This document shows positions 3,301 through 28,510 of a stretch of 64,000 bases of DNA, piece after piece. Source of the stretch: Kiritimatiellaeota bacterium B1221 (GTDB lineage: Bacteria > Verrucomicrobiota > Kiritimatiellia > SS1-B-03-39 > UBA6053); the NCBI GenBank assembly GCA_029269125.1, contig JARHXX010000011.1, positions 1 to 64,000 of the forward strand, in the 5' to 3' direction. The notes below the pieces were generated by a model. The model was not told where the DNA came from. It ran no database searches and worked only from the letters and a program-made list of their open reading frames with translations. The stretch's first letter is position 1. Every line of letters begins with the position of its first letter. Both the position numbers and the translations under genes were made by a program.

Positions 3301-6300
3301 CTGATTCCGCCAGCCTCATGCAATCCATTGTAGGCTACGGGAATGCGGAAACACATGATGTACAAACCCTGGTTAACGGCTCTCCCGTAGATCTATCAAA
3401 CCTGCACATTGATTTCGGGACCGTCGATTGGCAGACAAACCTCACGGAATTCAGCATCACGCTATCCAATAATGGCAGCACCACTCTCAGTGATATAAGC
3501 CTGAATCTTACCGGCTCGGATCCGGATTCCTTTTATTTCACCCCTACCGACACAACCTCCCTATCCCCCGGAGAAAGTCTTACGGTCACTATCGGATTTC
3601 ATTTGGAAAACAGCGGTGACAGATCCGCCGTACTGCAAATTGTGAGCGGCGATACCCCGCAGGAAGTTTTCGGATTCACCCTCCCCCTCCACGCAAACGG
3701 AAACCCGGTAATTCCAAGTTTTCAACCCATTCTAAATAAATCGGTCACCACCATGGCCTTGCAACCCGGAAACAAACTTTTGGTTGCAGGTGACTTTAAT
3801 CAAATAAATGGTGAATCGCATAATGGATTAGTACGTTTTCATTCTGACGGCAGTATAGATTCAAGCTTTCATCCCTCTATTTCGCGATGGGGAATCGAGA
3901 CCCTTTTAACCCAGGCAGATGGGAAAACACTCATCAGTGGAGCTTTTGAAACCGGGGACCAATACTACATCATCCGTTTGAATCAGGATGGTTCCGTCGA
4001 TGAAAACTTTAACGTCACAACCAATGGGGCCGTGTATGCAATGTTGGAAATGCCGAATGGACAAATTTATATTGGAGGCAGTTTCAACAGCGTAAACACT
4101 TTAACCAGGAAATCAATTGCCCGCCTCCATGCGGATGGGACACAGGACAACACTTTTTCTCTCGATCTGGAAACTGTTCCCTATTCTAAAGGTGTCAGCT
4201 CCATTGTGCGACAGGAAGATGGAAAGATTCTTTTAGGCGGTCGCTTCACAAGCGTGGAGGGTGAAGCAAGAAATAATATCGCGCAACTGCAGACCGACGG
4301 CAGTCTTGACCTGAGCTTCAACCCCACGATTGCGAGCGCGGACGCCTACACAGTGAACGCAATGATAACCCAACCAGATGGTAAAATTATCCTGGATGAC
4401 GGCCAGGAACTCATCAGATTAGAGGCGGATGGCAGCTTAGACGAATCCTTTGACGTCCCAGTCATCGGCTCTGTCAAAAGTATCGCCTTACAAAGTGACG
4501 GAAAAATCTGGGTTGCGGGAAGCTTTACCCATATCGGAAATTATGTGCGCAACAACATTGCCCGATTACACCCGGATGGCCGTCTGGATTTAAGCCAGGA
4601 TCCCAATGCCTCTGATGAGGTGAAGGCACTGCTTTTGAATGAAAACGGGGAATTATTCATCGGTGGAGATTTTGAGCAAGTGAATGGCCAAGCGACCGCT
4701 TACCTGGCTTTATTATTTAACAACCCTGCAATTTCTCAGTTTCAGGTTTCTGGTGGAAACCAGATAGATTGGATTCGGGGCGGGAGTGCCCCCAAACTTG
4801 AAAATCCTTCGGTTTCATATTGGAATGAATCCGCTTGGGAATCACTAGGACCTGTTGAAAGAACAGACAGTGGCTGGCAGATAACGGCAGCCAGTTTACC
4901 CGAAAGCTCATGGATCCGCGGGGTGAGCGGTGTACGGGGAGGCTTTGCAACACAGTCTCTCTCTCTTATCGAAAAAATAGAAAGATATGGAACAGGCACT
5001 TTCCCTGAACTCTCGGTTCAGCTGGACGGCCAAGAGATTCGGAACCAAAGGGCGACCTTGGATTTTGGTGAGCTGAACAGTACCATGAGCTCGGATCCGA
5101 GAGTAATCACCTTAACAAACAATGGAGATGGCATTTTAGAAATACGTGATGCTGACATCCTGGATTTTGAATCTGATGCCTTCCAACTCATCGATTTCGT
5201 AGCCGTCACTCTCTCTCCCGGTGAGAGTTCAGACCTTCAAATTGTCTTTAATCCGACAGCAGGGAAAGAGGAGGAAGCAGAATTGAGAATATTTTCGAAT
5301 GATGCTGTGCATACCCCTTTTATCGTATCGGTCAAAGGATCGGGGATCTATCCACTTGGAGATTTACAAACCGACGTGAACGATTCCATTAGAGCGCTGG
5401 CGATCCAACCCGATGGAAAAATTCTCATCGGAGGAAACTTCACTGAAGTCAATGGCCAGCCCAGAGCCTATCTCGCCAGACTAAATCCGGATGGAAGTTT
5501 GGATCCAGACTTTTCACCTGTCTTGGACAATTACGTCTATTCAATTTATTTAGAACGAGATCTGAACATTCTCGTGGGTGGATCATTTGATGAAGTGAAC
5601 AGCGAATCGAGAAGCCTATTGGCGCGCCTCAGTCCGGAAGGAGAACTCCTCCCTGATTTACAAGTACAGTTTACTTCCGGTACAATACATTGCGTCACGA
5701 AAAAACCGAATGGAAAAATTCTGATATCAGGCTCTTTCACTTCCGTGAATGGCAACCAACGCCTTCGGATTGCGCAATTAAATACCGATGGCTCCCTCGA
5801 CGAATCCCTTGTTCCGGAAATTTCACCCATCGCCTTCTTTTATGTAGATGACCTTAGCATACAAAGTGACGATAAAATAATCATAAGCACCACCGGGACA
5901 TACCGAGGAACCTCCACCTTGGGTCGGTTAGCATCTAACGGAGCCGTGGATACGACTTTTTCAGCACCAAAATTTTTAAAGGTTCATGAAACACTTATTC
6001 GTAGTGACGGAAAATTATATGTATCAGGAATCGTGATCAGAGAAGGAAACGTTCAGGAAACTGGACTATTTTTACTGAATACGGATGGGAGTTTTGACAC
6101 CGATTTCGCCCCTATTATAAATTCCTACATCTACACCATGGCCCTTCAAGCCGATGGGAAAATAATTATTGGCGGTGCTTTCACAGAAATAAACGGGGAA
6201 AAAGTACAAAGGCTTGCCGCCCTAAATCCGGATGGATCTCTGGACCCTTTCTTCCAACCTAATCCAAATTCCAACGTAACCCTGATTGCACTTGATCTTG

Positions 6301-7046
6301 ACGGCAGCCTGCTGGTCACGGGTTCTTTTTCTTCTATTGGGGGGCAAGCAAGAAGCGGATTCGTAAGAGCACTAAACCGTGCCCCCCTCTCCTCGCTCAC
6401 CCACGAAGACTCAGAACTTCGCTGGCAAGTGGGTGGGAGCTTCCCTGAGCTGTCAGAAGTTAATTTTGACATTTGGCAGGGAGACAGCTGGGTACCCTTA
6501 GGTGCACCAGAAAGAACAGCGGATGCTTGGAACCTTCAAACCCCTTCCCTATCAGCTGCAGGCTGGGTTCGAATTACCGGCCAATCCACCGCCGGTCCTA
6601 CGAACGGAGGTACGGGTCTTATTTCGATTCAAGAACCATTCGGAGGAGGAGGACCTGCAAATACATTCGCAGGCTGGTCCTTTAGGAAGGAGCTCCCCGT
6701 AAATCAACGCGATCCCTTTTATACATCAGGTCCGCTTGAAGTATCCAACCTGATGGCATTTGCCATGAATCTGGACCCCAGAACTGCGGGTCCATCTGAT
6801 ATGCCCAAAATAGCAGGCCTCTCCGAAACCCCAAATCGGGCATGGTTCAGATTCCGACGTAATACCAACGCTGCAGATGTCACCTTCAGTATACAATCAA
6901 AAGAAACGCTTCTGGATGACGAATGGCAAACGCACCCCATTTCAACTTACCGTGTCCATCAAACAGGCGATGGATGGGAAGTGATTGATATTGAAGTAAA
7001 CACTTCTGAGAAGGGCGATGGATTCTATCGCCTAAACTTAGAATAA
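348..7046 (+). CDS. Giant secreted delta-60-repeat protein (2232 aa). It has an N-terminal signal peptide and four repeated modules of about 550 aa, each made of a propeller-like DGKILVGGxF repeat block, a roughly 70-aa W-rich domain and an Ig-like domain.
   Basis: Long ORF with a hydrophobic N-terminus ([28 protein letters not shown]). The DGK(I/L)L(V/I)GGxF..VNG motifs recur dozens of times. A segment '..IDWIRxGSxPxxxxVxFxYWxxxxWxxxG' recurs four times. Confidence 0.9.
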
Positions 7047-9924: not shown

Positions 9925-10962
9925 TTAAGGTTTCCAGAGATATTGAAATTGAGAGTTGGGCTGAAGCGGTGCCAGAATTTCCGGACTCTTTACCGAGAAC
10001 AGCGAACTCCAGCCGCCCTCACTGTAATCGATCTGATAAAAAGCGGCGTCCTCCACGCCCAACAAGGACAACACCCGTTTTCGACTGTGGTCTATATAAC
10101 CGGTTTCATCCACCAATCCAAATTCCTGTGCGGCCGGCAGGGTGAAAATACGTCCGTCCAGCAGCTGATGCTCATCCGCAAACTCACTGTTAAAGGAACG
10201 ATGCTTCAGCACCAACCCGCGGAACCGTGCATACATTTGGTCCACCACTTCCTGTAAGATCTCTTCATGTTCCGAATTGATCGGTTCCAAAGAATTCAGC
10301 AAAGCTTTGTTGTCGCTGGAGGTGAGCGACGCATCCTGGATTCCCAGTTTTTCGCCCAACTGATGAATATTCACGGCCGAGATAATCACCCCGACCGAAC
10401 CCACGATCGAAGTGGGTTGTGCCACGATCACATCCCCCGCCAAGGCAATATAATATCCGCCGGAGGCCGCCATGTCGCCAATGTGCACCACGATTTTCCG
10501 TTCAGGCTGAGAGGCTTTGAAGTTCATAAGGGCCTGATAAATTTCATCACTCGCGGTCACCCCTCCCCCGGGGGAATTCATCTTCAGCAGGATGGCGGAA
10601 ACATCGGGATCCACGGTTACCGCACGAATTTCATGCAAAATTTTGGTCACCGGATCGACCACATCCCCGAAAAGCGAAGACGAGGACTCCCGCATGATCA
10701 CCCCGGAAAGACTGATCACCGCCACTTTCGCTTCGGCAGTGTCATTTCCCCAAATCAGGGTTTCATCCACCACCGGAAATTCTTCTACCCCAATCCCGGT
10801 CATCTGATCCCCGATATTGGAACAGGTCACAAAGTTGACCAACAAACTAATAATCAACAAAGACCACAAAATCCAAAGAGGTTTCCGCCGGCGCCGGGGA
10901 GCCGGAGGCAATTGAGGAGGGGGCATGGGAGGAGGCAAAGTGGGAGCTTCAGTAGTCATGCC
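9925..10962 (-). CDS. sppA: Signal peptide peptidase SppA (36K type). The ORF could extend to 11031, but the start at MTTEAP (about 10962) is more plausible.
   Basis: GDMAASGGYYIALAGDVIVAQPTSIVGSVGV serine-protease S49 motifs. Pro-rich N-terminus followed by a TM segment. The stop codon sits 1 nt from the uvrA start, so the two are translationally coupled. Confidence 0.85.
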   Translation of the reverse strand, partial: GMTTEAPTLPPPMPPPQLPPAPRRRRKPLWILWSLLIISLLVNFVTCSNIGDQMTGIGVEEFPVVDETLIWGNDTAEAKVAVISLSGVIMRESSSSLFGDVVDPVTKILHEIRAVTVDPDVSAILLKMNSPGGGVTASDEIYQALMNFKASQPERKIVVHIGDMAASGGYYIALAGDVIVAQPTSIVGSVGVIISAVNIHQLGEKLGIQDASLTSSDNKALLNSLEPINSEHEEILQEVVDQMYARFRGLVLKHRSFNSEFADEHQLLDGRIFTLPAAQEFGLVDETGYIDHSRKRVLSLLGVEDAAFYQIDYSEGGWSSLFSVKSPEILAPLQPNSQFQYLWKP

Positions 10963-11006
10963 CACCAATCTAAACGGGAATCGCAGAAAGAAAAGCCCGG
11001 AAGCGA

Positions 11007-11381
11007 ATGATTTACAAACCAAGAACCCCAATTTGCTTCGGTTTGTTGGCGGGACAACTTCGGGACCTGTCCCTCCGGAAGCCGGAGGTCGTCATCGGAT
11101 TTGAAGCCGCTGATTTTCTGCCGGTTCAAAATGCGGCCCCACCGGAGCTCCGGCCACTGCCCTTCGCCACCATCGAAGTGACACCCGGGAAAAGTGCTGA
11201 AGGCACCGGAATTTCCGGCATGGCCATCACCGAATTCGAAACCGGAAAACACTGCATCGAATGGCTGGACCAAATGATCCGCCTCGGTGAATTCGGGATT
11301 CCCAAAACCTCACATTTTGTGGTGTTGAAACCCACCTGGATCGAAGGATCCTCTTTACCACGAACCGTTCAGAAAAACTGA
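11007..11381 (+). CDS. Hypothetical 124-aa protein; questionable ORF in the sppA-pyc intergenic region
   Basis: ORF only. No recognisable motifs. No overlap with sppA if sppA starts at 10962. Confidence 0.25.
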   Translation: MIYKPRTPICFGLLAGQLRDLSLRKPEVVIGFEAADFLPVQNAAPPELRPLPFATIEVTPGKSAEGTGISGMAITEFETGKHCIEWLDQMIRLGEFGIPKTSHFVVLKPTWIEGSSLPRTVQKN

Positions 11382-17756: not shown

Positions 17757-17856
17757 GGGCTGATTAAAAACACAATGCGGGCTGAAGGTTCGCTCGAATA
17801 ACGGCATAGACACGGGTGCATTCGAGCGGACCATCAGCCCGCCTCACTTTTTTTTA
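17757..17856 (+). terminator. Long imperfect hairpin (about 23-bp stem, 20-nt loop) followed by a T8 run; intrinsic terminator or small-RNA 3' end
   Basis: gcgggctgaaggttcgctcgaat..loop..attcgagcggaccatcagcccgc, then ctcac-tttttttt. It sits 220 bp past the upstream gene stop. Confidence 0.5.
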
Positions 17857-18145: not shown

Positions 18146-18661
18146 ATGGGGTCTATAGAACACACTGCAACTGTTAGAAAAAATAATCCTATGGACTCAC
18201 ACGAAGTAATCAAAAAGACCCTTTCCGGCGCCGGTGTTAAATCGGTGGCCGCGGACATGAATCTATCCCCCTCCCTCATCTACAAGTGGTGTGAAGCCAA
18301 AGGTGAGGACAATAGCGGCGCGGACAACCCTTTGGACCGCCTGCTGAACCTCTGTCAGGTCACAGGCAACCACAGTCCCATCGTTTGGCTCTGCGAGCAA
18401 ATGAACGCATTTTATGTGGAAAATGTGACCCCGGACATGCAGGAGGAGGAAATGGAAGTGCTGAAAATGACCCAGCGCATTCTTCGCGAGTTTTCCGATA
18501 TGCTGGATATGGTCGCCCAGTCCATGGCCAATGACAACGGCATCGACAAAAAGGAAGCCCGGGACATCCGTGCGGAATGGGAAGATCTCAAACGGGTGGC
18601 CGAACAATTTGTGTTAGGCTGCGAAATGGGCGTTTTCGCTCCGGAAACTGAAGTGAAATAA
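18146..18661 (+). CDS. Phage regulatory protein CII (CP76 family)-like HTH regulator
   Basis: The 171-aa segment SVAADMNLSPSLIYKWCEAKGEDNSGADNPLDRLLNLCQVTGNHSPIVWLCEQMN matches the LNPDQPHLLTLEELIALTKASGDSRILDGFLAELG architecture of 186-CII/CP76 proteins. This is a recalled alignment, not a computed one. Confidence 0.5.
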   Translation: MGSIEHTATVRKNNPMDSHEVIKKTLSGAGVKSVAADMNLSPSLIYKWCEAKGEDNSGADNPLDRLLNLCQVTGNHSPIVWLCEQMNAFYVENVTPDMQEEEMEVLKMTQRILREFSDMLDMVAQSMANDNGIDKKEARDIRAEWEDLKRVAEQFVLGCEMGVFAPETEVK

Positions 18662-18663
18662 CC

Positions 18664-19230
18664 ATGCCTATCCTCGAAAACATTCGAAAATTGGCCAGAG
18701 CGAACCTTTCTCAATGGTTAAACGAAAGCGAAACCCCGGAAACGGAAATTGAAGCCAAAATCCGCGAATTGGAAGACGGCGCGGTTCAGGCAAAGAATAC
18801 CCTGGCCCATTTTGTGGTGAGCTACAAACGTATGGAACAAAATATCCAGGATCTACAGGCAACGGCGGAGGATCAATCCACAAGGGCAGAAAAGGCCTTA
18901 CGCTCGGGAGACGAAGCATCCGCCCGCCGGGCACTTCACGCCAAAATCAAAGCGGCAAACCGTGCGGACAACCTCATGCCTGTCCTGGAAAGCCGCCGCG
19001 AAACCTACCATGAACTCCAGGAATCCCTGGTGGAAATTCATGCCCAACTGAATTTGGCCCGGGCCAAAATGATGGATGTCCGGGCTTCAGAAATTTGCTG
19101 CGAATCCCCTCTTGAGGCACCGGACGATGTACAAACCACCCCTTCAGGACCAACAGTACGTCATCAACAAATCGAAGCGGAACTGAAAAGCTTGCAACAA
19201 AAAATCACCGGGTCTACATCTGAGGAATGA
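18664..19230 (+). CDS. pspA: PspA/IM30 family protein (phage-shock protein A / Vipp1-like, ESCRT-III superfamily)
   Basis: 188-aa all-helical coiled-coil. Its N-terminus (ENIRKLARANLSQWLNESETPETEIEAKIRELEDGAVQAKNTLAHFVVSYKR) parallels E. coli PspA ([49 protein letters not shown]). The start is 3 nt after the upstream stop. Confidence 0.75.
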   Translation: MPILENIRKLARANLSQWLNESETPETEIEAKIRELEDGAVQAKNTLAHFVVSYKRMEQNIQDLQATAEDQSTRAEKALRSGDEASARRALHAKIKAANRADNLMPVLESRRETYHELQESLVEIHAQLNLARAKMMDVRASEICCESPLEAPDDVQTTPSGPTVRHQQIEAELKSLQQKITGSTSEE

Positions 19231-19862
19231 ATGAGATGAAGGAATTATTTGAAGCCAGCTTTAACGTCGTCAACCTACCGGCAACATTACTTTTAATCAT
19301 GATCCTTTTGCATTGGATCATCGTGATCATCGGGGCGATGGACATGATTTCCATTGATTCGGAACTGGATTTCGAACTGGATATGGACGGCGAAGGCGGC
19401 GGATTCGATAAAGGAGACTTTATTCTCGAATACTTTAATGCCAAATACATCCCTATCTCGATACTGATGAGTATTTTCGCCCTGAGTTTTTGGGCCATCA
19501 GCATGTATGCCAACTGGTATATCCACCAAAATGAAAATGGCTGGATGGGCTTGGCCATCTTTGCCGGCAACCTGATTGTCAGCGCCCACATCACTAAATT
19601 TGCCACCCAACCCCTCATCCCCATCTTTAAATCGATGCGGGAACAAATGTCCGACAACATGAACCTGGTGGGAAAAACCGTGATCGTCACCTCGTCAAAA
19701 GCCGATGCAAAATTCGGCCAGGGTCAGATTCGTTTGGACGGTCCTGAAATCACTTTAAACGTCCGCACCGCCGGGGAAGAACTTCCCCGCGGCACCGAGG
19801 CGGTCATTTTACAACACGAACCCGCAACCGATATTTACCTCATCACCCAATTGGAGATCTAA
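19227..19862 (+). CDS. YqiJ-like inner-membrane protein with a C-terminal NfeD-type OB-fold (flotillin partner)
   Basis: Two TM helices then a soluble C-terminus (GKTVIVTSSKADAKFGQGQIRLDGPEITLNVRT..). It overlaps the pspA stop by 4 nt and precedes the flotillin gene, as in E. coli yqiJK. Confidence 0.65.
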   Translation: MNEMKELFEASFNVVNLPATLLLIMILLHWIIVIIGAMDMISIDSELDFELDMDGEGGGFDKGDFILEYFNAKYIPISILMSIFALSFWAISMYANWYIHQNENGWMGLAIFAGNLIVSAHITKFATQPLIPIFKSMREQMSDNMNLVGKTVIVTSSKADAKFGQGQIRLDGPEITLNVRTAGEELPRGTEAVILQHEPATDIYLITQLEI

Positions 19863-19865
19863 GTC

Positions 19866-21848
19866 ATGGAAGGAATTATTTATGTCATTTTTATAGCCGT
19901 CGTCGCGATCGGCGCTGGCGTACTGTTCATGTTCGCCACCTGTTACAAGAAAGTGGAACAGGGAACCGCCATCATCCGTAACGGCATGGGCGGCACCAAA
20001 GTGAGTTTTGTCGGCATGCTGGTCTTCCCCATTTTCCATCGGCGCGAACTGATGGACATCTCGGTGAAACGGGTGGAAATCGACCGGACCGGTACGGTGG
20101 GCGAAGGCCTGATCTGTAGGGACAATCTCCGGGCGGATGTAAAAGTCGCTTTCTTCGTGCGGGTAAACAAAACCCCGCAGGATGTTTTGAAAGTTGCCCA
20201 GTCTCTGGGTTGTAAACGCGGCTCCGATCCGCAGGGCCTCATCGAATTCTTCGACGCCAAATTTTCCGAAGGCTTAAAAACCGTGGGCAAACAGTTCGAC
20301 TTTGTCGACCTCTACACCAACCGGGAATTGTTCAAAGAAGAAATTCTGAAAGTCATCGGCACCGACCTGAACGGTTACATCCTCGACGATGCCGCCATCG
20401 ACTATTTGGAACAGACTTCTTTATCTGCCCTGGATCCGAAAAACATTTTGGATGCCGAAGGTATCAAAAAGATAACCGAACTGACCGCGGCCCAAAATAT
20501 TCTCTCCAACGACATCAGCCGTAACGAAGAGAAGACCATCAAGAAACAGGACGTGGAAGCCCGGGAAGCCATTCTGGAACTGGAACGTCAACAGGCTGAC
20601 GCGGAACAAAAACAACTCCGCGAAATAGCTGAAATCACCGCCCGTGAAGAGGCCCAGTCCAAAGTGGTGCAGGAAGAAGAGCGCCTGCGCTCGGAAAAAG
20701 TCCGGATCAAAACCGCAGAAGAAGTCGCGGTGGCCGAAGAAAATCGTGAGCGCCAAATCATCGTCGCCCTGAAAAACAAAGAACGGACCGAAGCGGTGGA
20801 AGTGGAACGGGTGGAACGGGACCGCGGACTGGAACGGGTCGAACGCGAACGCCTGGTGACCCTGAAAGACATCGACAAAGAAAAAGCGGTCGAAGTCGAA
20901 AAGAAAAATATTCAGGAAGTCATCCGCGAACGGGTTTCCGTGGAACGCACCGTGGTGGAAGAAGAAGAAAAAATCAAAGACACCAAAGAATTTGCCACTG
21001 CAGAACGTGCACGTCAGGTGGCCGAAACCCATGCAGAGGAAGAAGGCCGCGCCCTGAAAATCAAAGCGGTGCTGGATGCCGAAGCGCAACGCGACTCCGC
21101 CAAGCACATTGCCGAAGAACGGGTCATCAACGCCCAGGCCGAACGGGACGCCAGCGAACGCGAAGCCGACGCCCGCAAAATCCTCGCCGACGCCAAAGCG
21201 CAGGAAGAGGCGGTCATCGGTATGGGGGAAGCCCGCGTGCTCGAAGCCAAAGCCGAAGCCACCGAGAAATTCGGCCGGGCCGAAGCCACCGTCATCGGCG
21301 AAAAGGCCTTTGCAGAAGCGGACGGTATCGAGAAGAAAGCCGAAGCCATGAAACTGTTCGACGGCGTGGGCCGCGAACACGAAGAATTCAAACTCCAGCT
21401 CAACAAAGATCTGGAACTGCAATTGGCCTCCGTCAACGTGCAGCGTGACATCGCCAAAGAACAGGCATCCCTCATCGGGGAAGCCCTCAAGTCCGCCAAC
21501 ATCGATATCGTCGGTGGCGACAGCGACTTCTTCGACAAGATCGTGAACTCGGTCAGTAAAGGCAAAGCCCTGGACAGCTTCATGAACAACAGTGCACTGG
21601 CCACCGACGTCGCCAACACCCTGTTCTCCGGAGACCCCGAAGCTTTCACCAATCAGCTGCGCACCTTTGCCGGACGCTTCGGTATGAGCAGTGAGGATCT
21701 GAAGAATATCACCGTCTCCGCACTGCTCACCAAGATGACGGCCCAGGCGGACGACAACGATACTCTCGAAACCCTCGGCCGCCTGAGCGAAGTTTCCAAA
21801 CAGTTGGGAATCGGTGCCAAGCAGGTCACGGACTTGATGCAGAAGTAA
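19866..21848 (+). CDS. Flotillin family protein (SPFH/band-7 domain with a long E/A/R-rich coiled-coil; YqiK/FloT-like)
   Basis: 660 aa. N-terminal TM segment, SPFH core, and a long EA-rich flotillin repeat region. Confidence 0.9.
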   Translation: MEGIIYVIFIAVVAIGAGVLFMFATCYKKVEQGTAIIRNGMGGTKVSFVGMLVFPIFHRRELMDISVKRVEIDRTGTVGEGLICRDNLRADVKVAFFVRVNKTPQDVLKVAQSLGCKRGSDPQGLIEFFDAKFSEGLKTVGKQFDFVDLYTNRELFKEEILKVIGTDLNGYILDDAAIDYLEQTSLSALDPKNILDAEGIKKITELTAAQNILSNDISRNEEKTIKKQDVEAREAILELERQQADAEQKQLREIAEITAREEAQSKVVQEEERLRSEKVRIKTAEEVAVAEENRERQIIVALKNKERTEAVEVERVERDRGLERVERERLVTLKDIDKEKAVEVEKKNIQEVIRERVSVERTVVEEEEKIKDTKEFATAERARQVAETHAEEEGRALKIKAVLDAEAQRDSAKHIAEERVINAQAERDASEREADARKILADAKAQEEAVIGMGEARVLEAKAEATEKFGRAEATVIGEKAFAEADGIEKKAEAMKLFDGVGREHEEFKLQLNKDLELQLASVNVQRDIAKEQASLIGEALKSANIDIVGGDSDFFDKIVNSVSKGKALDSFMNNSALATDVANTLFSGDPEAFTNQLRTFAGRFGMSSEDLKNITVSALLTKMTAQADDNDTLETLGRLSEVSKQLGIGAKQVTDLMQK

Positions 21849-21924
21849 GAAGTCAGAAAACATTGGTCACGATTGGACGGATCAGTCTGATCTGTCCGAT
21901 CCGACCGATCAACTTATTGAAACT

Positions 21925-24900
21925 ATGAAATCTGACTCAGAAAAACCTGAAGCCCCTGCGAAATTATCCGGCGGCGCCTACGAAATTATCCGCCGCCGTC
22001 TCCACGAACACGGTGACGGGTTGCGTGAGCGCATCCATCAACTCAACGCGGAACGACAAAAAGTCTTCGGGGGCGTCGAGCCAAAGCTGGTCGGCACCGA
22101 GCGGGTTCTCACCGCCAACAACTGTGTCCCCCGGGACATGGTGGCCCTGGGGGATCGTTTTCTGTTTGGCTACAATGTGCAGCTGGGCCTCAAAACCGAA
22201 ATGGATCCCAAGGATGTGTTTGCGGTGTTCACTCTGGATGATCACGGGCTGACGGAAATCCCCCTTCCGTCGGTTTTAGATGAGCGCTTTCTGAGAGACT
22301 TCAAAGAACTGTACACCTTCTACCGCGATACCCGATTTGCCAAATTTGCCCAGATCGGTCCGCATTTGTACATGGTCTTCCGGGTCGGCAAAGAAATCGA
22401 AAATATCAAAACCTTTAAGTGGCTCCTGAATGACGACGGTTCGATGACCTATATCGACAACCGCAGTGACCACGAATATAAATATCCGCCCCAACACGAA
22501 TTCGAATGGGTCAACGCCACCCGGGATATGCACCGCAACGGCGCTTTCCCGCACATCTCTTTTGAAGACCGCATTTTTGTGGAAACCACCGGGGGAGACC
22601 TCACCATCAAGATCGACGACAACACGGAAACCGGAGAAGGCATTTACGCGGAACCGGTCGACGATCCTGATCAGACGCTCGATGATGCTGCCTTTGCGTT
22701 TGCCTCGGTCGGCAATCTCATTTTGATGCGCATTCTCCCCTATCGGGAAGAGACGCCCCGCTATCTGGTTTACAGCGAAAAAGTCCGGCAGGCCCGGCGC
22801 ATGGATGCCATTGCCGGTGCCTGCGTGCTGTTGCCCGAAGACCACGGCATCATTTTCTCCAACGGATATTATTTGCAGACCGGCGAATTCAAGGAATTCG
22901 ATTCCGGTCTGAAAAACATGATGTTTGAACGGCGGATCTCCTCTCCTAACGGCGAAGATTCGATGTACGTTTTTTACAAGCGTGACAGCGGGTCCTACGT
23001 ACTGCTTTCCTACAATATCATCACCCAAAAAGTGGAAACCCCGATTGAGTGCAGCGGATTTTGTTTATTCAGCAGCGGACGCCTGATGTACTTCAAGGCC
23101 CAGGAAGAACCCACCAAATCCCACATCGTGCAAATCTGGCAAACCCCTTATGCCGAAACCGTGGAAGGGGCAGGAGAAGCCGCGGACAGCATGTTGTTTA
23201 AAATCGGCAACCGCGATGTGGTCCGCTGCATGGCCGGATGCGGTACCCTCATGGGCTTGTTGAACCGTGAAGATTCCTACGCCAATTTGTATGTGGACAT
23301 CGTCCGCCAATCCACCGATTTGCTGGACAGCTATTTTTGGATCCGCGAGGAGGAGGCCTTTAACCTCGGCAAACCCTTGGAAGAAATCCGCAACGCCGCC
23401 TCTTCCGCCATTGCCGAATATGAAAAAGTGGTGCAGCTCCGGCATGCCGCCGAAGCCCAGCTGAAAGAAACCGACGCGGAAACCAAAGATCTTTTAAATC
23501 AGATCCGCCTGCAACGTCAGGATGAAATTCAGGGATACGTGCAAGCGCTCGGTTCCCTGCGTGCACTGCGCGGAAAAGTCATCACCCTGAAAGATGTCCG
23601 CTACATGGATCTCGAAGCCGTGGAGGGTTTGGAAGAAACCGTAAAAGAACAAACCGATCAGCAGGCCAGGCGCTGCGTCGATTTTTTACTCGGGGATAAA
23701 GCCCTCGCCCCCTACGAAAAACGCATCTCCAAACTGGAACCCCGCATTCCGGATCTCAAAACCGTGCGCGATGGTGAATCCATGCGCGAAGAGGTGGAAG
23801 GTATCTCCGGCGAACTGGAAATGCTGATTGAAATTGTCAGCAATCTCAGCATCGACGACGCCACCCACCGCACCCAGATCATCGACGGGATTTCAGCATT
23901 GTTCAGCACCCTCAATCAGGTGCGGGCCGCCCTGCAAAACCGCATTAAGAAAATGGCGGTTCAGGAAGGCGAAGCCGAATTCGCTTCGCAAATGAAATTG
24001 TTGAACCAGGCGGTCATCAATTATCTGGATGTCTGCGACAGCCCTGAAAAATGTGAGCAGTCTTTGGGCCGGGTGATGATTCAACTCGAGGAACTGGAAG
24101 GCAAGTTTGCGGATTATGACGAGTACGTGCTGAAGCTCGGAGAAAAGCGCGAAGAGGTTTATAACGCTTTTGAGACCCGCCGCCTCTCTCTGGTGGAAGC
24201 GCGAAACAAACGGGCCGACACCCTGCTGCGCTCCGCGGAACGAATCTTAGGGTCGGTTAAAAACCGGGTCGGCACTTTAAAATCCGTGGAGGACATCAAC
24301 GGATATTTTGCCTCCGATATGATGATTGAAAAACTGCGCGGTATCATTGATCAGTTGACCGAAATGGATGATCCGGTGAAGGCCGGAGATATTGAAACCC
24401 AACTGAAGAGTGCACGCGAAGATGCAGTGCGGCAATTACATGACCGCTCGGAACTTTTTGTCGACGGTGAAAATGTCATTCAGTTTGGACGTCACAAGTT
24501 CTCGGTAAATACTCAGGAGCTGGATCTCACCATCGTACCCCGCGGCGACGACATGATGCTGCATCTCACCGGCACCGCCTTTTTCGAAACCATTAGTGAC
24601 CCGGCATTTTTGGCCACCCGTCCGGTGTGGAGTCAGGAACTGATTTCCGAAAACGATGAAGTCGCCCGTATCGAATATTTAGCTTACGGTTTCGTGCAAC
24701 AACTGGGAGACACTGAAATCCCTGAAGATCTCTCCACTGCCATGCGGGAATTCATGGCGCCACGGTATGCGGAAGGATACCAGAAAGGTGTTCACGATGA
24801 AGACGCGGTCAAAATCGTCCGCGCACTTTTGGAAATGCGGGACCAGTTGGGCACCCTGCGCACCCCCGCCTCGGTTCGGGCATTGGCGGTGGTGTTCTGG

Positions 24901-27168
24901 CAGGATTTCCGCAGACGCGCTGAAGCCGAAATTATGATCGCCCGCCTCAAAGGCGTGGGCGCGTCCAACCAGGTTTTCCGCCAGTCCCGTCGACAAGCGG
25001 ATGCGATTTCGGATATGGCAAAGGACTTAAAAAAATTTGCGGAACAGAGCGCGTCTTTTGATCCACGCGCCGCCGAAAGTGCCGCGACCTACCTCTTCGA
25101 TGTGGTCGCCAACGGCATTCAAGCACCTATCAGTGCCGAGGGCGGAAAACTGATCACCCGCTTTTTAGAACAACTACAAAAACTGGGGTCCAGGAAAAAT
25201 TTTGATGCCGCCTGTGAATCTTTACGTGAAAATGCGGAAGCTCGATTCGGCCTGGTTCGTGAATGGCTGCAAGGCTATCTGGAAAATACCAAATCTGAAA
25301 GTGCATCCACCGTGCTCGACGAAGCCGCGGCCTGGTTATCCTCCGGTCTTTTTGATGCAGGCAATGTCTCCGACTTGAGCGAATATGTACAGTTGGAAGG
25401 ACTGCGCTCCTCTCATGCCCGCATTGAAAACGGCGTCATGAATTTGCAGTACAGCGAATTCATGTGGCGTCTGGAACGATTTGCCACCGAAACCGTTCCC
25501 CGCTTTGAAGCCTTTGAGCGAATGAAAAAAGAATTCGTGGAACAAAGCCGCAAAGGCATGCGTCTTGACGAATTCAAACCGCGGGTGCTCACTTCCTTTG
25601 TGCGGAATAAATTGATCGACCGGGTGTACCTGCCCATCGTGGGTGACAACCTTGCCAAACAAATCGGAGTGGTGGGGAAAAATACCCGCACCGATCGCAG
25701 TGGCATGCTCATGCTGATCTCCCCTCCCGGTTACGGGAAGACCACATTAATGGAGTACATTGCCAACCGTCTCGGCGTGGTGTTTATGAAAATCAATGGT
25801 CCAGCCATCGGACATTTGGTTACCTCATTGGATCCGGAAGAAGCGCCCAATGCCGCGGCAAGGGAAGAACTGAACAAACTGGGCTTGGCGTTGGAGATGG
25901 GTGACAACGTGATGTTGTACTTGGATGATATCCAGCACTGTAATCCAGAGTTCCTGCAGAAATTTATTTCTTTGTGTGACGCCCAGCGGAAAATTGAAGG
26001 TGTCTACAAAGGTGTGAGTAAAACCTACGACCTTCGCGGGAAAAAAGTTTCGGTGGTGATGGCCGGAAATCCTTATACCGAAAGCGGCGAAAAATTCCGC
26101 ATTCCCGACATGCTTGCCAACCGGGCGGACACCTACAATCTTGGCGATATTCTGGGAGACAACGGCGCCGACTTCGAACTCAGTTTTCTTGAAAATGCGC
26201 TCACCTCCAATCCCTCTCTCAACCGCCTCGCTTCCGGGGTTCGGAAAGACGTGCACACGATCATCCGGGCTGCGGAAAACGGGCAGACCGAAGGGGTGGA
26301 ACTGGCCGGACGCTACACTGCCGAAGAAGTCACGGAAATGCTTTCAGTGATGCGCAAGATGATCACCGTCCGCGATGTGTTACTCAAAGTGAATGAAGAA
26401 TATATTCGCTCCGCCGGTCAGGCCGATGAATATCGTACGGAGCCCGCATTTAAACTTCAGGGTTCCTACCGGAACATGGCCCGTCTGTCCGAAAAAGTGG
26501 AAGCGGTGATGAATGATCGCGAGCTGCAGACTTTGATTGTTTCAGATTACGAAAACGAAGCGCAGACCCTCACTACCGGAGCGGAAGCCAACCTTTTAAA
26601 ATTTAAAGAACTCATCGGTATCCAAACGCAAACGGAAAAAGAACGCTGGGCAGAAATCAAAAAAGGGTTCTCACGCAATCAGGTAATGAAAGGCGTGGGC
26701 GGCGACGACCGGGTCGGTCAGGCCGTGGCTCAGCTTTCGGTGATGGGCGAAGGACTCAAAGATATTCGTCAGGTGCTCAAAGACGGGGTGGGATCCAAAT
26801 CCGCCGGCCCCGTGATGACCGGGTTCACTCCCGAGACTTTGGATCAGATCGGCAAGTGGATGGAAAAACCCAAGACGCGGAAAGGCCCTATCCAAGCCGG
26901 ACTGAGCAAAGAGACGCTGGATCAAATCGCGGAATTGATCGCCAAGATTCAACCCTCACAGGTGGTCGCCCCCTCCCCTGCGCCGGAACCAAACAGCGGA
27001 CTCACCCCTGCCCTGGCAAAAATGCTGGAACAACAATTTGAAAGATTGCAGGAGTGCATCCAAGGCGGACCCCATCAGCCCGAGAAAATTCTGGAAAGAC
27101 TCGAGAGGGCAAAAAGGGTTTACAGTGAACTCATGAATCAAGTCGGTTACGGAGGCGGGCATGAATAG
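21925..27168 (+). CDS. Giant 1747-aa protein with an N-terminal domain of unknown function, a central coiled-coil region of about 600 aa and a C-terminal AAA+ ATPase (Walker A LISPPGYGKTT around aa 1265, Walker B VMLYLDDIQH around aa 1330, sensor-1 VVMAGNPY)
   Basis: Motifs read directly at about 25717-25746 (P-loop) and 25915-25935 (Walker B, DD-type as in the AAA_5/MoxR/dynein-like clade). The ORF is uninterrupted and its start is 77 nt after the flotillin stop. Confidence 0.85.
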   Translation: MKSDSEKPEAPAKLSGGAYEIIRRRLHEHGDGLRERIHQLNAERQKVFGGVEPKLVGTERVLTANNCVPRDMVALGDRFLFGYNVQLGLKTEMDPKDVFAVFTLDDHGLTEIPLPSVLDERFLRDFKELYTFYRDTRFAKFAQIGPHLYMVFRVGKEIENIKTFKWLLNDDGSMTYIDNRSDHEYKYPPQHEFEWVNATRDMHRNGAFPHISFEDRIFVETTGGDLTIKIDDNTETGEGIYAEPVDDPDQTLDDAAFAFASVGNLILMRILPYREETPRYLVYSEKVRQARRMDAIAGACVLLPEDHGIIFSNGYYLQTGEFKEFDSGLKNMMFERRISSPNGEDSMYVFYKRDSGSYVLLSYNIITQKVETPIECSGFCLFSSGRLMYFKAQEEPTKSHIVQIWQTPYAETVEGAGEAADSMLFKIGNRDVVRCMAGCGTLMGLLNREDSYANLYVDIVRQSTDLLDSYFWIREEEAFNLGKPLEEIRNAASSAIAEYEKVVQLRHAAEAQLKETDAETKDLLNQIRLQRQDEIQGYVQALGSLRALRGKVITLKDVRYMDLEAVEGLEETVKEQTDQQARRCVDFLLGDKALAPYEKRISKLEPRIPDLKTVRDGESMREEVEGISGELEMLIEIVSNLSIDDATHRTQIIDGISALFSTLNQVRAALQNRIKKMAVQEGEAEFASQMKLLNQAVINYLDVCDSPEKCEQSLGRVMIQLEELEGKFADYDEYVLKLGEKREEVYNAFETRRLSLVEARNKRADTLLRSAERILGSVKNRVGTLKSVEDINGYFASDMMIEKLRGIIDQLTEMDDPVKAGDIETQLKSAREDAVRQLHDRSELFVDGENVIQFGRHKFSVNTQELDLTIVPRGDDMMLHLTGTAFFETISDPAFLATRPVWSQELISENDEVARIEYLAYGFVQQLGDTEIPEDLSTAMREFMAPRYAEGYQKGVHDEDAVKIVRALLEMRDQLGTLRTPASVRALAVVFWQDFRRRAEAEIMIARLKGVGASNQVFRQSRRQADAISDMAKDLKKFAEQSASFDPRAAESAATYLFDVVANGIQAPISAEGGKLITRFLEQLQKLGSRKNFDAACESLRENAEARFGLVREWLQGYLENTKSESASTVLDEAAAWLSSGLFDAGNVSDLSEYVQLEGLRSSHARIENGVMNLQYSEFMWRLERFATETVPRFEAFERMKKEFVEQSRKGMRLDEFKPRVLTSFVRNKLIDRVYLPIVGDNLAKQIGVVGKNTRTDRSGMLMLISPPGYGKTTLMEYIANRLGVVFMKINGPAIGHLVTSLDPEEAPNAAAREELNKLGLALEMGDNVMLYLDDIQHCNPEFLQKFISLCDAQRKIEGVYKGVSKTYDLRGKKVSVVMAGNPYTESGEKFRIPDMLANRADTYNLGDILGDNGADFELSFLENALTSNPSLNRLASGVRKDVHTIIRAAENGQTEGVELAGRYTAEEVTEMLSVMRKMITVRDVLLKVNEEYIRSAGQADEYRTEPAFKLQGSYRNMARLSEKVEAVMNDRELQTLIVSDYENEAQTLTTGAEANLLKFKELIGIQTQTEKERWAEIKKGFSRNQVMKGVGGDDRVGQAVAQLSVMGEGLKDIRQVLKDGVGSKSAGPVMTGFTPETLDQIGKWMEKPKTRKGPIQAGLSKETLDQIAELIAKIQPSQVVAPSPAPEPNSGLTPALAKMLEQQFERLQECIQGGPHQPEKILERLERAKRVYSELMNQVGYGGGHE

Positions 27169-27169
27169 C

Positions 27170-27335
27170 GCGACGCCCGAGTCCCGCATTTATGCGGAAG
27201 TTTTCCGACCCCGTTTACGGGGAAGTCTCGAAAAGAGCAAGGCCTCAACTTCACACGATACCGGAAGTATCTGCGTGAGCAACATCGTAAACGATGTCGC
27301 AGACTTCCGCATAAATGCGGGACTCGGGCGCAGAG
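27170..27335. promoter_or_regulatory. Array of four related 14-bp palindromes (CCGCAT-TT-ATGCGG, CCCCGT-TT-ACGGGG, CATCGT-AA-ACGATG, CCGCAT-AA-ATGCGG). The outer two are embedded in a perfect 28-bp long-range inverted repeat (27172-27201 vs 27303-27331).
   Basis: Read directly between the AAA-gene stop (27168) and the MKPKK start (27345). The half-site consensus is C-N-N-C-R-T. Confidence 0.7.
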
Positions 27336-27344
27336 GGAACTCAA

Positions 27345-27710
27345 ATGAAACCTAAGAAAACAGAATCCTCCGACCTCCTGACCCTCAGCAATCAACTGTT
27401 GGCGGAAGTGAACCGTGAACTGGATGCCCGCTTTATGGATTTACCTGAAGACGTCCGCGCGTTGCTGGTACAAAAAGGCGCGCTCACCCAAACCGTGATT
27501 CGCGAACTCACCCGCCTCATCGAACTGGCCGCCGACAAAGCCAAAAAGCACGAAGACCTGCTCGATCACTGCGCCGAATGGCAACGCGAATTTTTCATTC
27601 CGCTCAAAGCCCAGAGCGACGGAGAAAAACTCGACCAGGAAATATACCTCAAGGATCTCGAACAGATGATCGAAGAGGTGGGACGGGTTTTGGCAGAGCG
27701 GGATGCTTGA
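27345..27710 (+). CDS. Small helical protein (about 121 aa), probable last gene of the PspA-flotillin-AAA module
   Basis: The ORF at 27315..27710 starts inside the IR element. The internal Met at MKPKK (27345) is preceded by an agaggg SD-like sequence. Confidence 0.55.
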   Translation: MKPKKTESSDLLTLSNQLLAEVNRELDARFMDLPEDVRALLVQKGALTQTVIRELTRLIELAADKAKKHEDLLDHCAEWQREFFIPLKAQSDGEKLDQEIYLKDLEQMIEEVGRVLAERDA

Positions 27711-27833: not shown

Positions 27834-27975
27834 TCCCAAAATTATCCTGCCCTAAATTATCCTGCCCTAAATTATCCTGCCCTAAATTATCCTGCCCTAA
27901 ATTATCCTGCCCTAAATCATCCTGCCCAAAATTATCCTGCCCTAAACCATCCTGCCCAAATTATCCTGCCCAAAA
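27834..27975. repeat. 15-bp tandem repeat (attatcctgccctaa), about 9.5 near-perfect copies. In one frame it would encode (KLSCP)n.
   Basis: Read directly. It is preceded by a duplicated ggcaagatgattt motif. It lies between convergent genes and overlaps the 3' end of the minus-strand zinc-ribbon gene by a few nt. Confidence 0.9.
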
Positions 27976-27976
27976 A

Positions 27977-28510
27977 TTATTCTGTTAAAAAAGCCAACAA
28001 CTGATCTTTCTGCGGATGTTCGTTTATCCACTCGCGGATGTCTTTGATTTTCGAATAGCTTTCTTCACCGAATCGTTTTTTAAATACGGATTCCATGGTT
28101 TGTGCCAGATTCTCTTCACGAATTTGTTTTTGCCAAGCGGTGGAAAAAATACGATGGAGTTCATCGTGAAGATTTTGAGCTTCCAGTGCCTGCCATTCAT
28201 TTTTATCCAGCCAGATGCCCCCACAGGCGGAACAGTAATCTACAAAGAAATTGAGTCCGTGACCCACTTTGTATTTCAATAAAATTTTACCACAATCAGG
28301 ACAGAGCCTCGCGCCGGTTTGATCCTCCACTTCGAATTGGACTTCGGTGAAAGGTTTCTCCGCTTGAATTTCTGTCAGTGATTTTTGCCAGGCTTCGTAA
28401 TTTTTGTGGGGGATCCATTGGCCATCACAGTTTTCACATTTCTGGGCAGTCAGGCCATCGGTTAAAGAAACAGAAGCGGTACGTTTAGAGGAACAGGTGG
28501 GACATTTCAT
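27977..28510 (-). CDS. Zinc-ribbon (TFIIB-type) domain protein with two CxxC..CxxC ribbons
   Basis: MKCPTCSS..CENCDG and CPDCGK..CSACGG motifs. 177 aa. Confidence 0.6.
   Translation of the reverse strand: MKCPTCSSKRTASVSLTDGLTAQKCENCDGQWIPHKNYEAWQKSLTEIQAEKPFTEVQFEVEDQTGARLCPDCGKILLKYKVGHGLNFFVDYCSACGGIWLDKNEWQALEAQNLHDELHRIFSTAWQKQIREENLAQTMESVFKKRFGEESYSKIKDIREWINEHPQKDQLLAFLTE

Follow-up and report, generated by a model that had tools for sequence, protein, structure and literature searches.

A Kiritimatiellota version of the PspA-YqiJ-flotillin-AAA+ operon class encodes a candidate ATP-driven remodeller of flotillin scaffolds

How PspA/Vipp1 polymers and flotillin cages are built, reshaped and recycled in bacteria, with no Vps4-like motor to drive the process, is an open question; according to a 2025 review, an ATPase like Vps4 "appears absent in bacteria" (PMC7619361). 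A 64,000-nucleotide (nt) stretch of DNA from Kiritimatiellaeota bacterium B1221 (the window) bears on this question. It carries six genes, here called g1 to g6, in which a very large AAA+ ATPase (g5) is encoded beside a predicted flotillin (g4), a predicted YqiJ-type NfeD protein (g3) and a predicted PspA (g2), with a CII/CP76-like helix-turn-helix (HTH) protein (g1) at the 5' end and a small gene (g6) at the 3' end (Table 1). The operon family to which these genes belong sets the large ATPase beside flotillin in hundreds of species, and beside PspA in many of them, which makes it a concrete and testable motor candidate. Open reading frame (ORF) calling on the window placed six co-directional ORFs on the plus strand, at the same coordinates as a preliminary description of this DNA, and confirmed the tightly packed module reported there. 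The successive junctions are a 2-nt gap, a 4-nt overlap, a 3-nt gap, a 76-nt gap and a 146-nt gap; the close spacing of the first four genes was as described, but the distance before the ATPase gene had been given as 77 nt.

By its predicted products, the region is the Kiritimatiellota version of a published operon class. Ravi et al. (bioRxiv 2020; mSystems 2024, PMC11237479) described operons in which CesT/Tir-PspA genes are combined with a YqiJ/YuaF protein, a membrane-spanning flotillin that combines band-7, coiled-coil and flotillin domains, and a novel AAA+ ATPase with a β-propeller and a coiled coil. They give the YqiJ/YuaF protein three transmembrane segments, note that some of the operons include a phospholipase D gene and that shortened operons lacking PspA have a wider distribution, and liken the association of PspA with the AAA+ ATPase to that of Snf7 with Vps4. 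The study is one of comparative genomics, with no experiment and no assignment of the ATPase to an AAA+ clade. The module can therefore not be called undescribed, as it was in the preliminary description, since both the operon class and the ESCRT-III/Vps4 analogy are found in the 2024 paper. We recovered the prototype arrangement in 14-19 Bacteroidota loci, and g5 was 47-52% identical over its full length to the ATPases of the prototype loci. As in the published class, PspA lies directly before YqiJ, flotillin and DUF3686-type AAA+ genes that keep their order. The window differs in having neither the CesT_Tir_1 chaperone nor the divergent XRE regulator, in the CII/CP76-like HTH protein that heads the operon, in a PspA cut to 188 amino acids (aa) and in the additional small gene after the ATPase gene. 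The underlying idea is already in the literature, so that novelty is limited; new here are the CP76-type regulator, the minimal PspA and the extra small gene. With these first two additions, the Kiritimatiellota version could be a compact system for reconstitution.

We surveyed the best 80 loci of the g5 family, in which ORFs were called and searched with the window proteins and with iterated profiles. The loci came from at least seven phyla (Kiritimatiellota, Planctomycetota, Verrucomicrobiota, Bacteroidota, Desulfobacterota, Bacillota and Omnitrophota). Counts refer to the 60 loci for which 4.5 kb or more of sequence was available upstream, and Pfam scans of representative proteins confirmed the identities. 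A flotillin gene stood directly upstream of the ATPase gene in 57 loci (95%), and YqiJ was present in 52. PspA was encoded in 20, namely 19 Bacteroidota loci and the close relative L001. CesT_Tir_1 (14 loci) and a divergent XRE-type HTH regulator (17 loci) were restricted to Bacteroidota, and g1 homologues (seven loci) to Verrucomicrobiota and Kiritimatiellota; four loci had a phospholipase D gene. The evolutionarily fixed core is thus the YqiJ-type NfeD protein, the YqiK-type flotillin and the DUF3686 AAA+ ATPase, and the CII/CP76-like HTH protein travels with this core in bacteria of the Planctomycetes-Verrucomicrobia-Chlamydiae (PVC) group. The linkage of the AAA+ family to SPFH and PspA genes, on which the preliminary description had staked its proposal, is therefore conserved in other genomes, with PspA in several independent gene orders. 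The recurrent linkage to flotillin/YqiJ and PspA makes a membrane-associated, ATP-driven machine the best reading of the module.

PspA itself recurs as an addition to this core, recruited on several occasions and in differing positions. CesT_Tir_1-PspA genes are placed upstream of the core in Bacteroidota, and PspA lies immediately 3' of the ATPase gene in two Phycisphaerae loci. Tandem PspA genes were found as two copies in the Kiritimatiellota relative L086 and as three in Pontiella desulfatans. On the Pseudomonas fluorescens megaplasmid pQBR103 (L089 1-12187) a PspA-polyamine operon stands directly upstream of YqiJ-like, SPFH and ATPase genes, and the plain YqiJ-flotillin-ATPase triad occurs on Streptomyces and Deinococcus replicons.

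Some of the surveyed loci carry further genes. The pQBR103 PspA operon also encodes a rhomboid protease, DUF2491, DUF350 and DUF1190 proteins and a glutathionylspermidine synthase, and so joins two of the operon classes that Ravi et al. set out for PspA. In three Bacteroidota loci (L024 7084-9295, L045 and L069) DUF4178, an unknown gene and DUF350 come after the ATPase gene; they belong to the make-up of the yjf-type PspA/polyamine operon. In several relatives (L086 6406-6789; L042 9536-9958; L043 9362-9919) small endonuclease-like genes (PDDEXK_3, DUF559) lie between the flotillin and ATPase genes; they look like selfish insertions into the operon's one longer intergenic gap. In the window, this 76-nt gap holds a 9-nt tandem repeat, GATCAGTCC, in 3.6 copies (21880-21911) just 5' of the ATPase start codon.

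The N-terminal part of the giant ATPase g5 holds a DUF3686 region, reported by Ravi et al. (PMC11237479) as β-propeller repeats. Over 6000 cluster representatives make up the family, often under the name "DNA repair ATPase", and it is present in at least 568 species genomes. Where the preliminary description had about 600 aa of coiled coil, a crude heptad scan flagged about 260 residues between positions 447 and 1045 of g5, with a poor control in which shuffled g4 outscored real g4. No hydrophobic segment was found in g5, which is predicted to be soluble; among the module proteins such segments are confined to g3 and g4. The C-terminal part bears a single AAA+ module. In an alignment of 13 sequences (52-87% identity) the Walker A motif SPPGYGKT, the Walker B motif LYLDD, the sensor-1 motif AGNP, R1400 and the sensor-2-like motif GSYR were all invariant. 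The enzyme is probably active because these ATPase motifs are unchanged throughout, and the preliminary description was right in calling the AAA+ domain "DD-type".

We compared the AAA+ module with known AAA+ proteins. The highest score was obtained with CbbQ (11.8), followed by NorQ (10.1), both of the MoxR type, then by McrB (9.4 and 9.1), midasin (8.6) and Vps4 (7.8 and 7.2). Foldseek matches for the AAA+ model included MCM, HslU, NorQ and RuvB, and the longest Pfam AAA alignment on g5 was that of AAA_5. The segment after Walker B (DDIQHCNPEFLQKF...IEGV...VVMAGNP...IPDMLANRA) is one that we take to be collinear with the MoxR/AAA_5 pattern. The modelled AAA+ fold is thus closest to the MoxR/McrB group and lies outside the Vps4 clade. 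A Pfam scan of g5 detected no MIT domain.

The two proteins encoded just upstream of g5 were identified by profile comparison. For g3, the whole-protein Pfam scan gave a weak NfeD match. The profile of a 34-sequence g3 family aligned with E. coli YqiJ over its full length (hhalign 96.7%, expectation value E=4.2e-10, 184 columns), and 17 of the 34 relatives had a YqiJ_N match. With hydrophobic segments at residues 9-45 and 73-95, g3 is a predicted membrane protein of the YqiJ/YuaF type, hydrophobic in its N-terminal part and carrying an NfeD β-domain at the C-terminus. Whole-protein scans of g4 against Pfam and NCBIfam returned no match. When the N-terminal 230 aa were scanned separately, Band_7 was found at residues 30-210 (E=4.9e-10), and the g4 family profile matched the E. 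coli flotillin YqiK with an hhalign probability of 100% (E=2.7e-41, 406 columns). The protein is identical (100%) to the NCBI "flotillin family protein" of Kiritimatiellaeota bacterium B1221. It has a hydrophobic segment at residues 1-28. We predict a flotillin of the YqiK type that is anchored in the membrane at its N-terminus and continues with an SPFH/band-7 domain, a long helical stretch rich in Glu and Ala, and a C-terminal domain. Searches of the PDB with g4 and g5, both by sequence and by profile, gave nothing or P-loop-level matches only. The YqiJ/NfeD-flotillin pairing proposed in the preliminary description was borne out by these YqiJ, YqiJ_N, Band_7 and YqiK matches; as in other SPFH-NfeD pairs, the two genes are adjacent and co-directional, 3 nt apart.

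The g2 protein matched PspA_IM30 above the gathering cut-off (E=5.3e-14, profile positions 2-141 of 220), in agreement with its earlier description as an ESCRT-III-like PspA, and is a predicted member of the PspA/IM30 family, the bacterial branch of the ESCRT-III superfamily. It retains the N-terminal amphipathic helix, the hairpin region and, in its relatives as well, a short conserved C-terminal helix that follows a disordered linker. It is the orthologue of the second of the two tandem PspA genes in L086, to which it is 58% identical over residues 1-139. The L086 copy is 224 aa long, so that g2 is about 36 residues shorter, and the first L086 paralogue has no counterpart in the window. Against the profile of the Bacteroidota module PspA, g2 matched at positions 1-134 and weakly at 216-233.

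At the head of the operon, g1 matched Pfam Phage_CP76 (PF06892) with E=8.7e-9 and 35.8 bits against a gathering cut-off of 26, which bears out the reported resemblance to CII/CP76 regulators. Aligned with seven homologues, it shares a start at M(D/E)SHE; its true start is for this reason probably Met16 at 18191, giving a product of 156 aa. The family alignment contains an HTH-like segment, followed by invariant NPLDR and WLC motifs. The g1 subfamily comprises 343 proteins, exclusively from Kiritimatiellota and Verrucomicrobiota, and PF06892 was found in most of them. A g1 homologue occupies the 5' end of the operon in the window and in L001, and in five Verrucomicrobiota loci it is divergent and adjoins the YqiJ gene. 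In Pontiella sulfatireligans it comes first in an operon of CP76, a 217-aa protein with no Pfam match and Band_7, without the ATPase. Solitary g1 homologues also occur at other sites. The placement of g1 (heading the operon, divergent from it, or in an ATPase-free SPFH operon) fits a local regulator of the SPFH module in PVC bacteria, and g1 is probably the transcription regulator of the module. We also considered whether g1 was the CesT/Tir-like protein of the published operon, and rejected this: g1 is a CP76-family HTH protein, and the true CesT_Tir_1 is a separate family of 131-aa proteins.

Several known systems share parts of this arrangement. The E. coli yqiJ-yqiK locus has homologues of g3 and g4 in the same order and with the same tight coupling, but no ATPase, PspA or regulator. 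In the B. subtilis pspA-ydjGHI operon PspA is genetically coupled to an SPFH protein (YdjI), which is reported to be needed for bringing PspA to the membrane (PMC8581546). Unlike the module, this operon has no AAA+ ATPase and no YqiJ-type NfeD protein, and YdjI belongs to another SPFH subtype. Partnerships such as HflK/C-FtsH likewise pair an SPFH scaffold with an AAA+ machine; HflK/C cages enclose the AAA+ protease FtsH. FtsH is, however, a membrane-anchored protease of the classical AAA+ clade, whereas g5 is predicted to be soluble, free of a protease domain and MoxR-like. The MoxR chaperones (CbbQ, NorQ, RavA) and McrB have the MoxR/AAA_5 type of AAA+ fold in common with g5. In contrast to them, the module has no VWA partner of the CbbO, NorD or ViaA type and no McrC nuclease, and g5 has about 1250 additional N-terminal residues and a DD Walker B. 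As for ESCRT-III and Vps4, an ESCRT-III-superfamily PspA is encoded beside a large AAA+ ATPase, and as far as the genes go an ATP-driven cycle of polymer remodelling is plausible. The differences are that g5 is closest to MoxR/McrB rather than to the classical clade, has no MIT domain, is about four times the size of Vps4 and is tied more tightly to flotillin than to PspA.

We consider it fairly probable that flotillin and YqiJ form a scaffold on which the docked ATPase remodels and recycles both the scaffold and the PspA gathered there, with g1 regulating the operon. YqiJ and flotillin would make up an SPFH assembly anchored in the inner membrane, on its cytoplasmic side. The ATPase would dock on this assembly through its N-terminal propeller and helical regions, and its single MoxR/McrB-like AAA+ ring would spend ATP on building, reshaping or recycling the flotillin scaffold along with the proteins collected on it. 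Where encoded in cis, PspA would be the main client of the ATPase; it would be drawn to the flotillin platform, seal or stabilise the membrane where it is damaged, and then be released. Transcription of the operon would be controlled by g1, and g6 might serve as a lineage-specific adaptor of the ATPase. The scheme draws on what the genes were identified as, on the conservation of the triad and of the ATPase motifs, on PspA having been recruited repeatedly and on the confinement of membrane segments to g3 and g4. It also draws on the published SPFH cages, the recruitment of PspA by the B. subtilis SPFH protein and the HflKC-FtsH precedent. The ATPase may then work like Vps4 on an ESCRT-III-type polymer, by analogy and though it is no Vps4 homologue, with flotillin rather than PspA as its obligatory partner. 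A wider claim, and so far a tentative one, is that the DUF3686 family is a dedicated MoxR-type, ATP-driven remodeller of flotillin assemblies, and of PspA polymers where PspA is present in cis. It would then match Vps4 in function without being homologous to it, and no earlier energy source is known for SPFH/ESCRT-III-like scaffolds in bacteria.

A number of observations weigh against the flotillin-scaffold scheme. Our literature search found no experimental paper on the ATPase family, and we infer co-transcription, contacts and substrate. The Walker B of g5 is DD and not DE, which might mean slow hydrolysis or a switch-like role. MoxR-type ATPases are usually partnered with a VWA protein, and no VWA domain was found in the six module proteins or in the flanking genes scanned. 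The AAA+ model of g5 is of moderate confidence, with a predicted local distance difference test (pLDDT) score of 68.9, and when hhalign was used to compare the AAA region with individual E. coli proteins (RavA, FtsH, RuvB and HslU), the Walker A region alone could be aligned, which gave no clade assignment. The AlphaFold model of g4, built from a 42-sequence alignment, had a mean pLDDT of 59.8 and values below 50 over the SPFH domain; it was not used, and the identity of g4 rests on profile comparison instead. Finally, about two thirds of the informative loci have no PspA in cis, so that the PspA step may not be general.

This last count also bears on the view that the ATPase is a strict Vps4 counterpart, dedicated to disassembling PspA polymers, with flotillin merely a platform. 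The repeated recruitment of PspA beside the ATPase gene, in differing gene orders, speaks for such a partnership, a Vps4-like factor is regarded as missing in bacteria (PMC7619361), and Ravi et al. drew the same analogy. Yet flotillin accompanies the ATPase in 95% of loci, and PspA as the primary partner, as the preliminary description had it, found no support. The AAA+ module of g5 also ranks nearest to MoxR, McrB and midasin rather than to Vps4, and lacks a detectable MIT domain. The C-terminal helix of g2 sits where ESCRT-III proteins bear their Vps4-binding motif, which we infer could favour a Vps4-like contact; this helix presumably departs from the consensus of MIT-interacting motif 1 (MIM1), and that counts against it. 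We regard a strict Vps4 counterpart as unlikely. Less likely again is an arrangement like that of HflKC and FtsH, in which the flotillin/YqiJ assembly would confine and regulate the ATPase, and the ATPase would be a motor that unfolds or extracts damaged proteins in or at the membrane rather than a scaffold remodeller. The near-universal linkage of flotillin and ATPase would suit it well, and MoxR-type ATPases are chaperone-like, with CbbQ and NorQ among the g5 matches. SPFH cages that house AAA+ machines are established for FtsH-HflKC and for prohibitin with the m-AAA protease, and bacterial flotillin microdomains are reported to stabilise unfolded proteins (PMC11222466). Such a motor would, however, have to act with neither a membrane segment nor a protease domain in g5 and with no partner protease in the module, and the repeated recruitment of PspA would be left unexplained.

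The resemblance of g1 to phage regulators raises the prospect of an anti-phage or envelope-defence system under a phage-type CII regulator. Its membership of Pfam Phage_CP76, the phospholipase D gene at some loci, the copy on megaplasmid pQBR103 and an AAA+ fold that is also McrB-like could all be cited for this. We found, however, no g1 homologue among 50,697 phage records. The contexts of the g1 subfamily were chromosomal, in PVC bacteria and with housekeeping surroundings, and not the prophage or phage setting of PF06892 regulators. A PADLOC defence scan of the module gave only noise-level matches to IetA and LmuB (E 0.002 or weaker). The module is moreover a single conserved operon across phyla, rather than part of variable defence islands, its flanks are housekeeping genes, and it has no McrC-type nuclease partner. 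We hold a defence role to be very improbable, and for the phage-responsive control suggested in the preliminary description we found no support. It is scarcely credible that the database label is correct, which would make g5 a DNA repair ATPase with unrelated neighbours. The Pfam description of DUF3686, the name "DNA repair ATPase" given by the Prokaryotic Genome Annotation Pipeline (PGAP) and weak RuvB matches at the level of Walker A speak for it. This similarity to RuvB is limited to the P-loop region; Pfam shows only DUF3686, DUF7902 and AAA in g5, with no DNA-binding, nuclease or helicase domain. The gene is fixed beside membrane-scaffold genes in at least seven phyla, and a full-text search for "DUF3686" in the literature library used returned no papers. 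The name, which sits on more than 6000 database entries of the family, is almost certainly misleading.

The setting of the module in the window is unremarkable. Its GC content (0.48-0.57) does not depart from the surroundings, and the neighbouring genes identified with Pfam are housekeeping ones: UvrA, an S49 peptidase, pyruvate carboxylase, an M60 peptidase, a zinc-ribbon protein and an aspartyl protease. No integrase, transposase or other mobility gene was found near the module. The proposal that it is an accessory or acquired unit is accordingly not supported. Collinearity with the close relative L001 is limited to the module itself, which fits a self-contained operon. A scan for promoters and terminators found no more sites than in shuffled sequence.

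Repeats and palindromes do stand on both sides of the module, as the preliminary description had noted, but they do not look like the boundaries of an island. The inverted repeat at the 5' side, where the M60 peptidase gene adjoins the module, resembles a terminator that acts in both directions. The element between g5 and g6 folds as RNA with -90.6 kcal/mol (z=-10.4). It is absent from L001, in which g6 lies directly 3' of g5 (the g5 proteins being 87% identical), and this points to a recent insertion. We regard it as a putative strain-specific palindromic insertion, or one resembling a miniature inverted-repeat transposable element (MITE). No Rfam match was found within 17-29 kb, the element included; the window holds no further copy of it, and a 26-nt core of its 28-nt arm had no exact copy in metagenome contigs. 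The third feature is a tandem array of a 15-nt unit, downstream of g6.

Table 1. Coordinates of the module genes, of the g5 domains and of the flanking repeats in the window
Feature	Position	Strand	Details
g1	18146-18661	+	171 aa as listed
g2	18664-19230	+	188 aa
g3	19227-19862	+	211 aa
g4	19866-21848	+	660 aa
g5	21925-27168	+	1747 aa
g6	27315-27710	+	131 aa as listed
g5 DUF3686	22021-23337	+	residues 33-471; Pfam E=4.5e-182
g5 DUF7902	23698-23949	+	residues 592-675; Pfam E=1.3e-26; within helical, partly heptad-like middle region
g5 single AAA+ module	25696-26484	+	residues ~1258-1520; motif alignment
Imperfect 34-nt inverted repeat	17766-17853		arms 79% complementary, 20-nt loop; A-run 5', T-run 3'
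157-nt element	27174-27330	+	perfect 28-bp closing inverted repeat and four small hairpins; between g5 and g6
Tandem array	27835-27984		ten copies of 15-nt unit CCCTAAATTATCCTG; between g6 and convergent zinc-ribbon gene

The last gene, g6, probably starts at the ATG at 27345, with a product of 121 aa, because the listed ATG falls inside the 157-nt palindromic insertion; alignment with homologues points to the same start. It had no Pfam match, and its homologues amounted to 13 cluster representatives among 1.84 billion proteins. A homologue lies 3' of g5 in L001 and is absent from the remaining 79 of the 80 surveyed loci. In L087 a homologue with 50% identity overlaps the end of g5 by 20 nt, and L086 has a remnant trace of g6. 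We describe g6 as a putative lineage-specific accessory gene for a small helical protein, which as a rule is coupled to the ATPase gene at the latter's 3' end.

Three genes outside the module were also noted. A 2232-aa protein encoded at 348-7046 (+) has DUF5122 β-propeller repeats and Ig-like domains and bears no relation to the module. The S49 (SppA/ClpP-like) peptidase gene (9925-11031, -), 7 kb upstream of the module, has a sub-threshold NfeD1b_N match, making it the second NfeD-related gene in the window. A Zn_ribbon_TFIIB-type gene adjoins both the module (27977-28510, -) and the CP76/217-aa/Band_7 operon of Pontiella sulfatireligans (L082 2269-2640, -), and may be a conserved neighbour.

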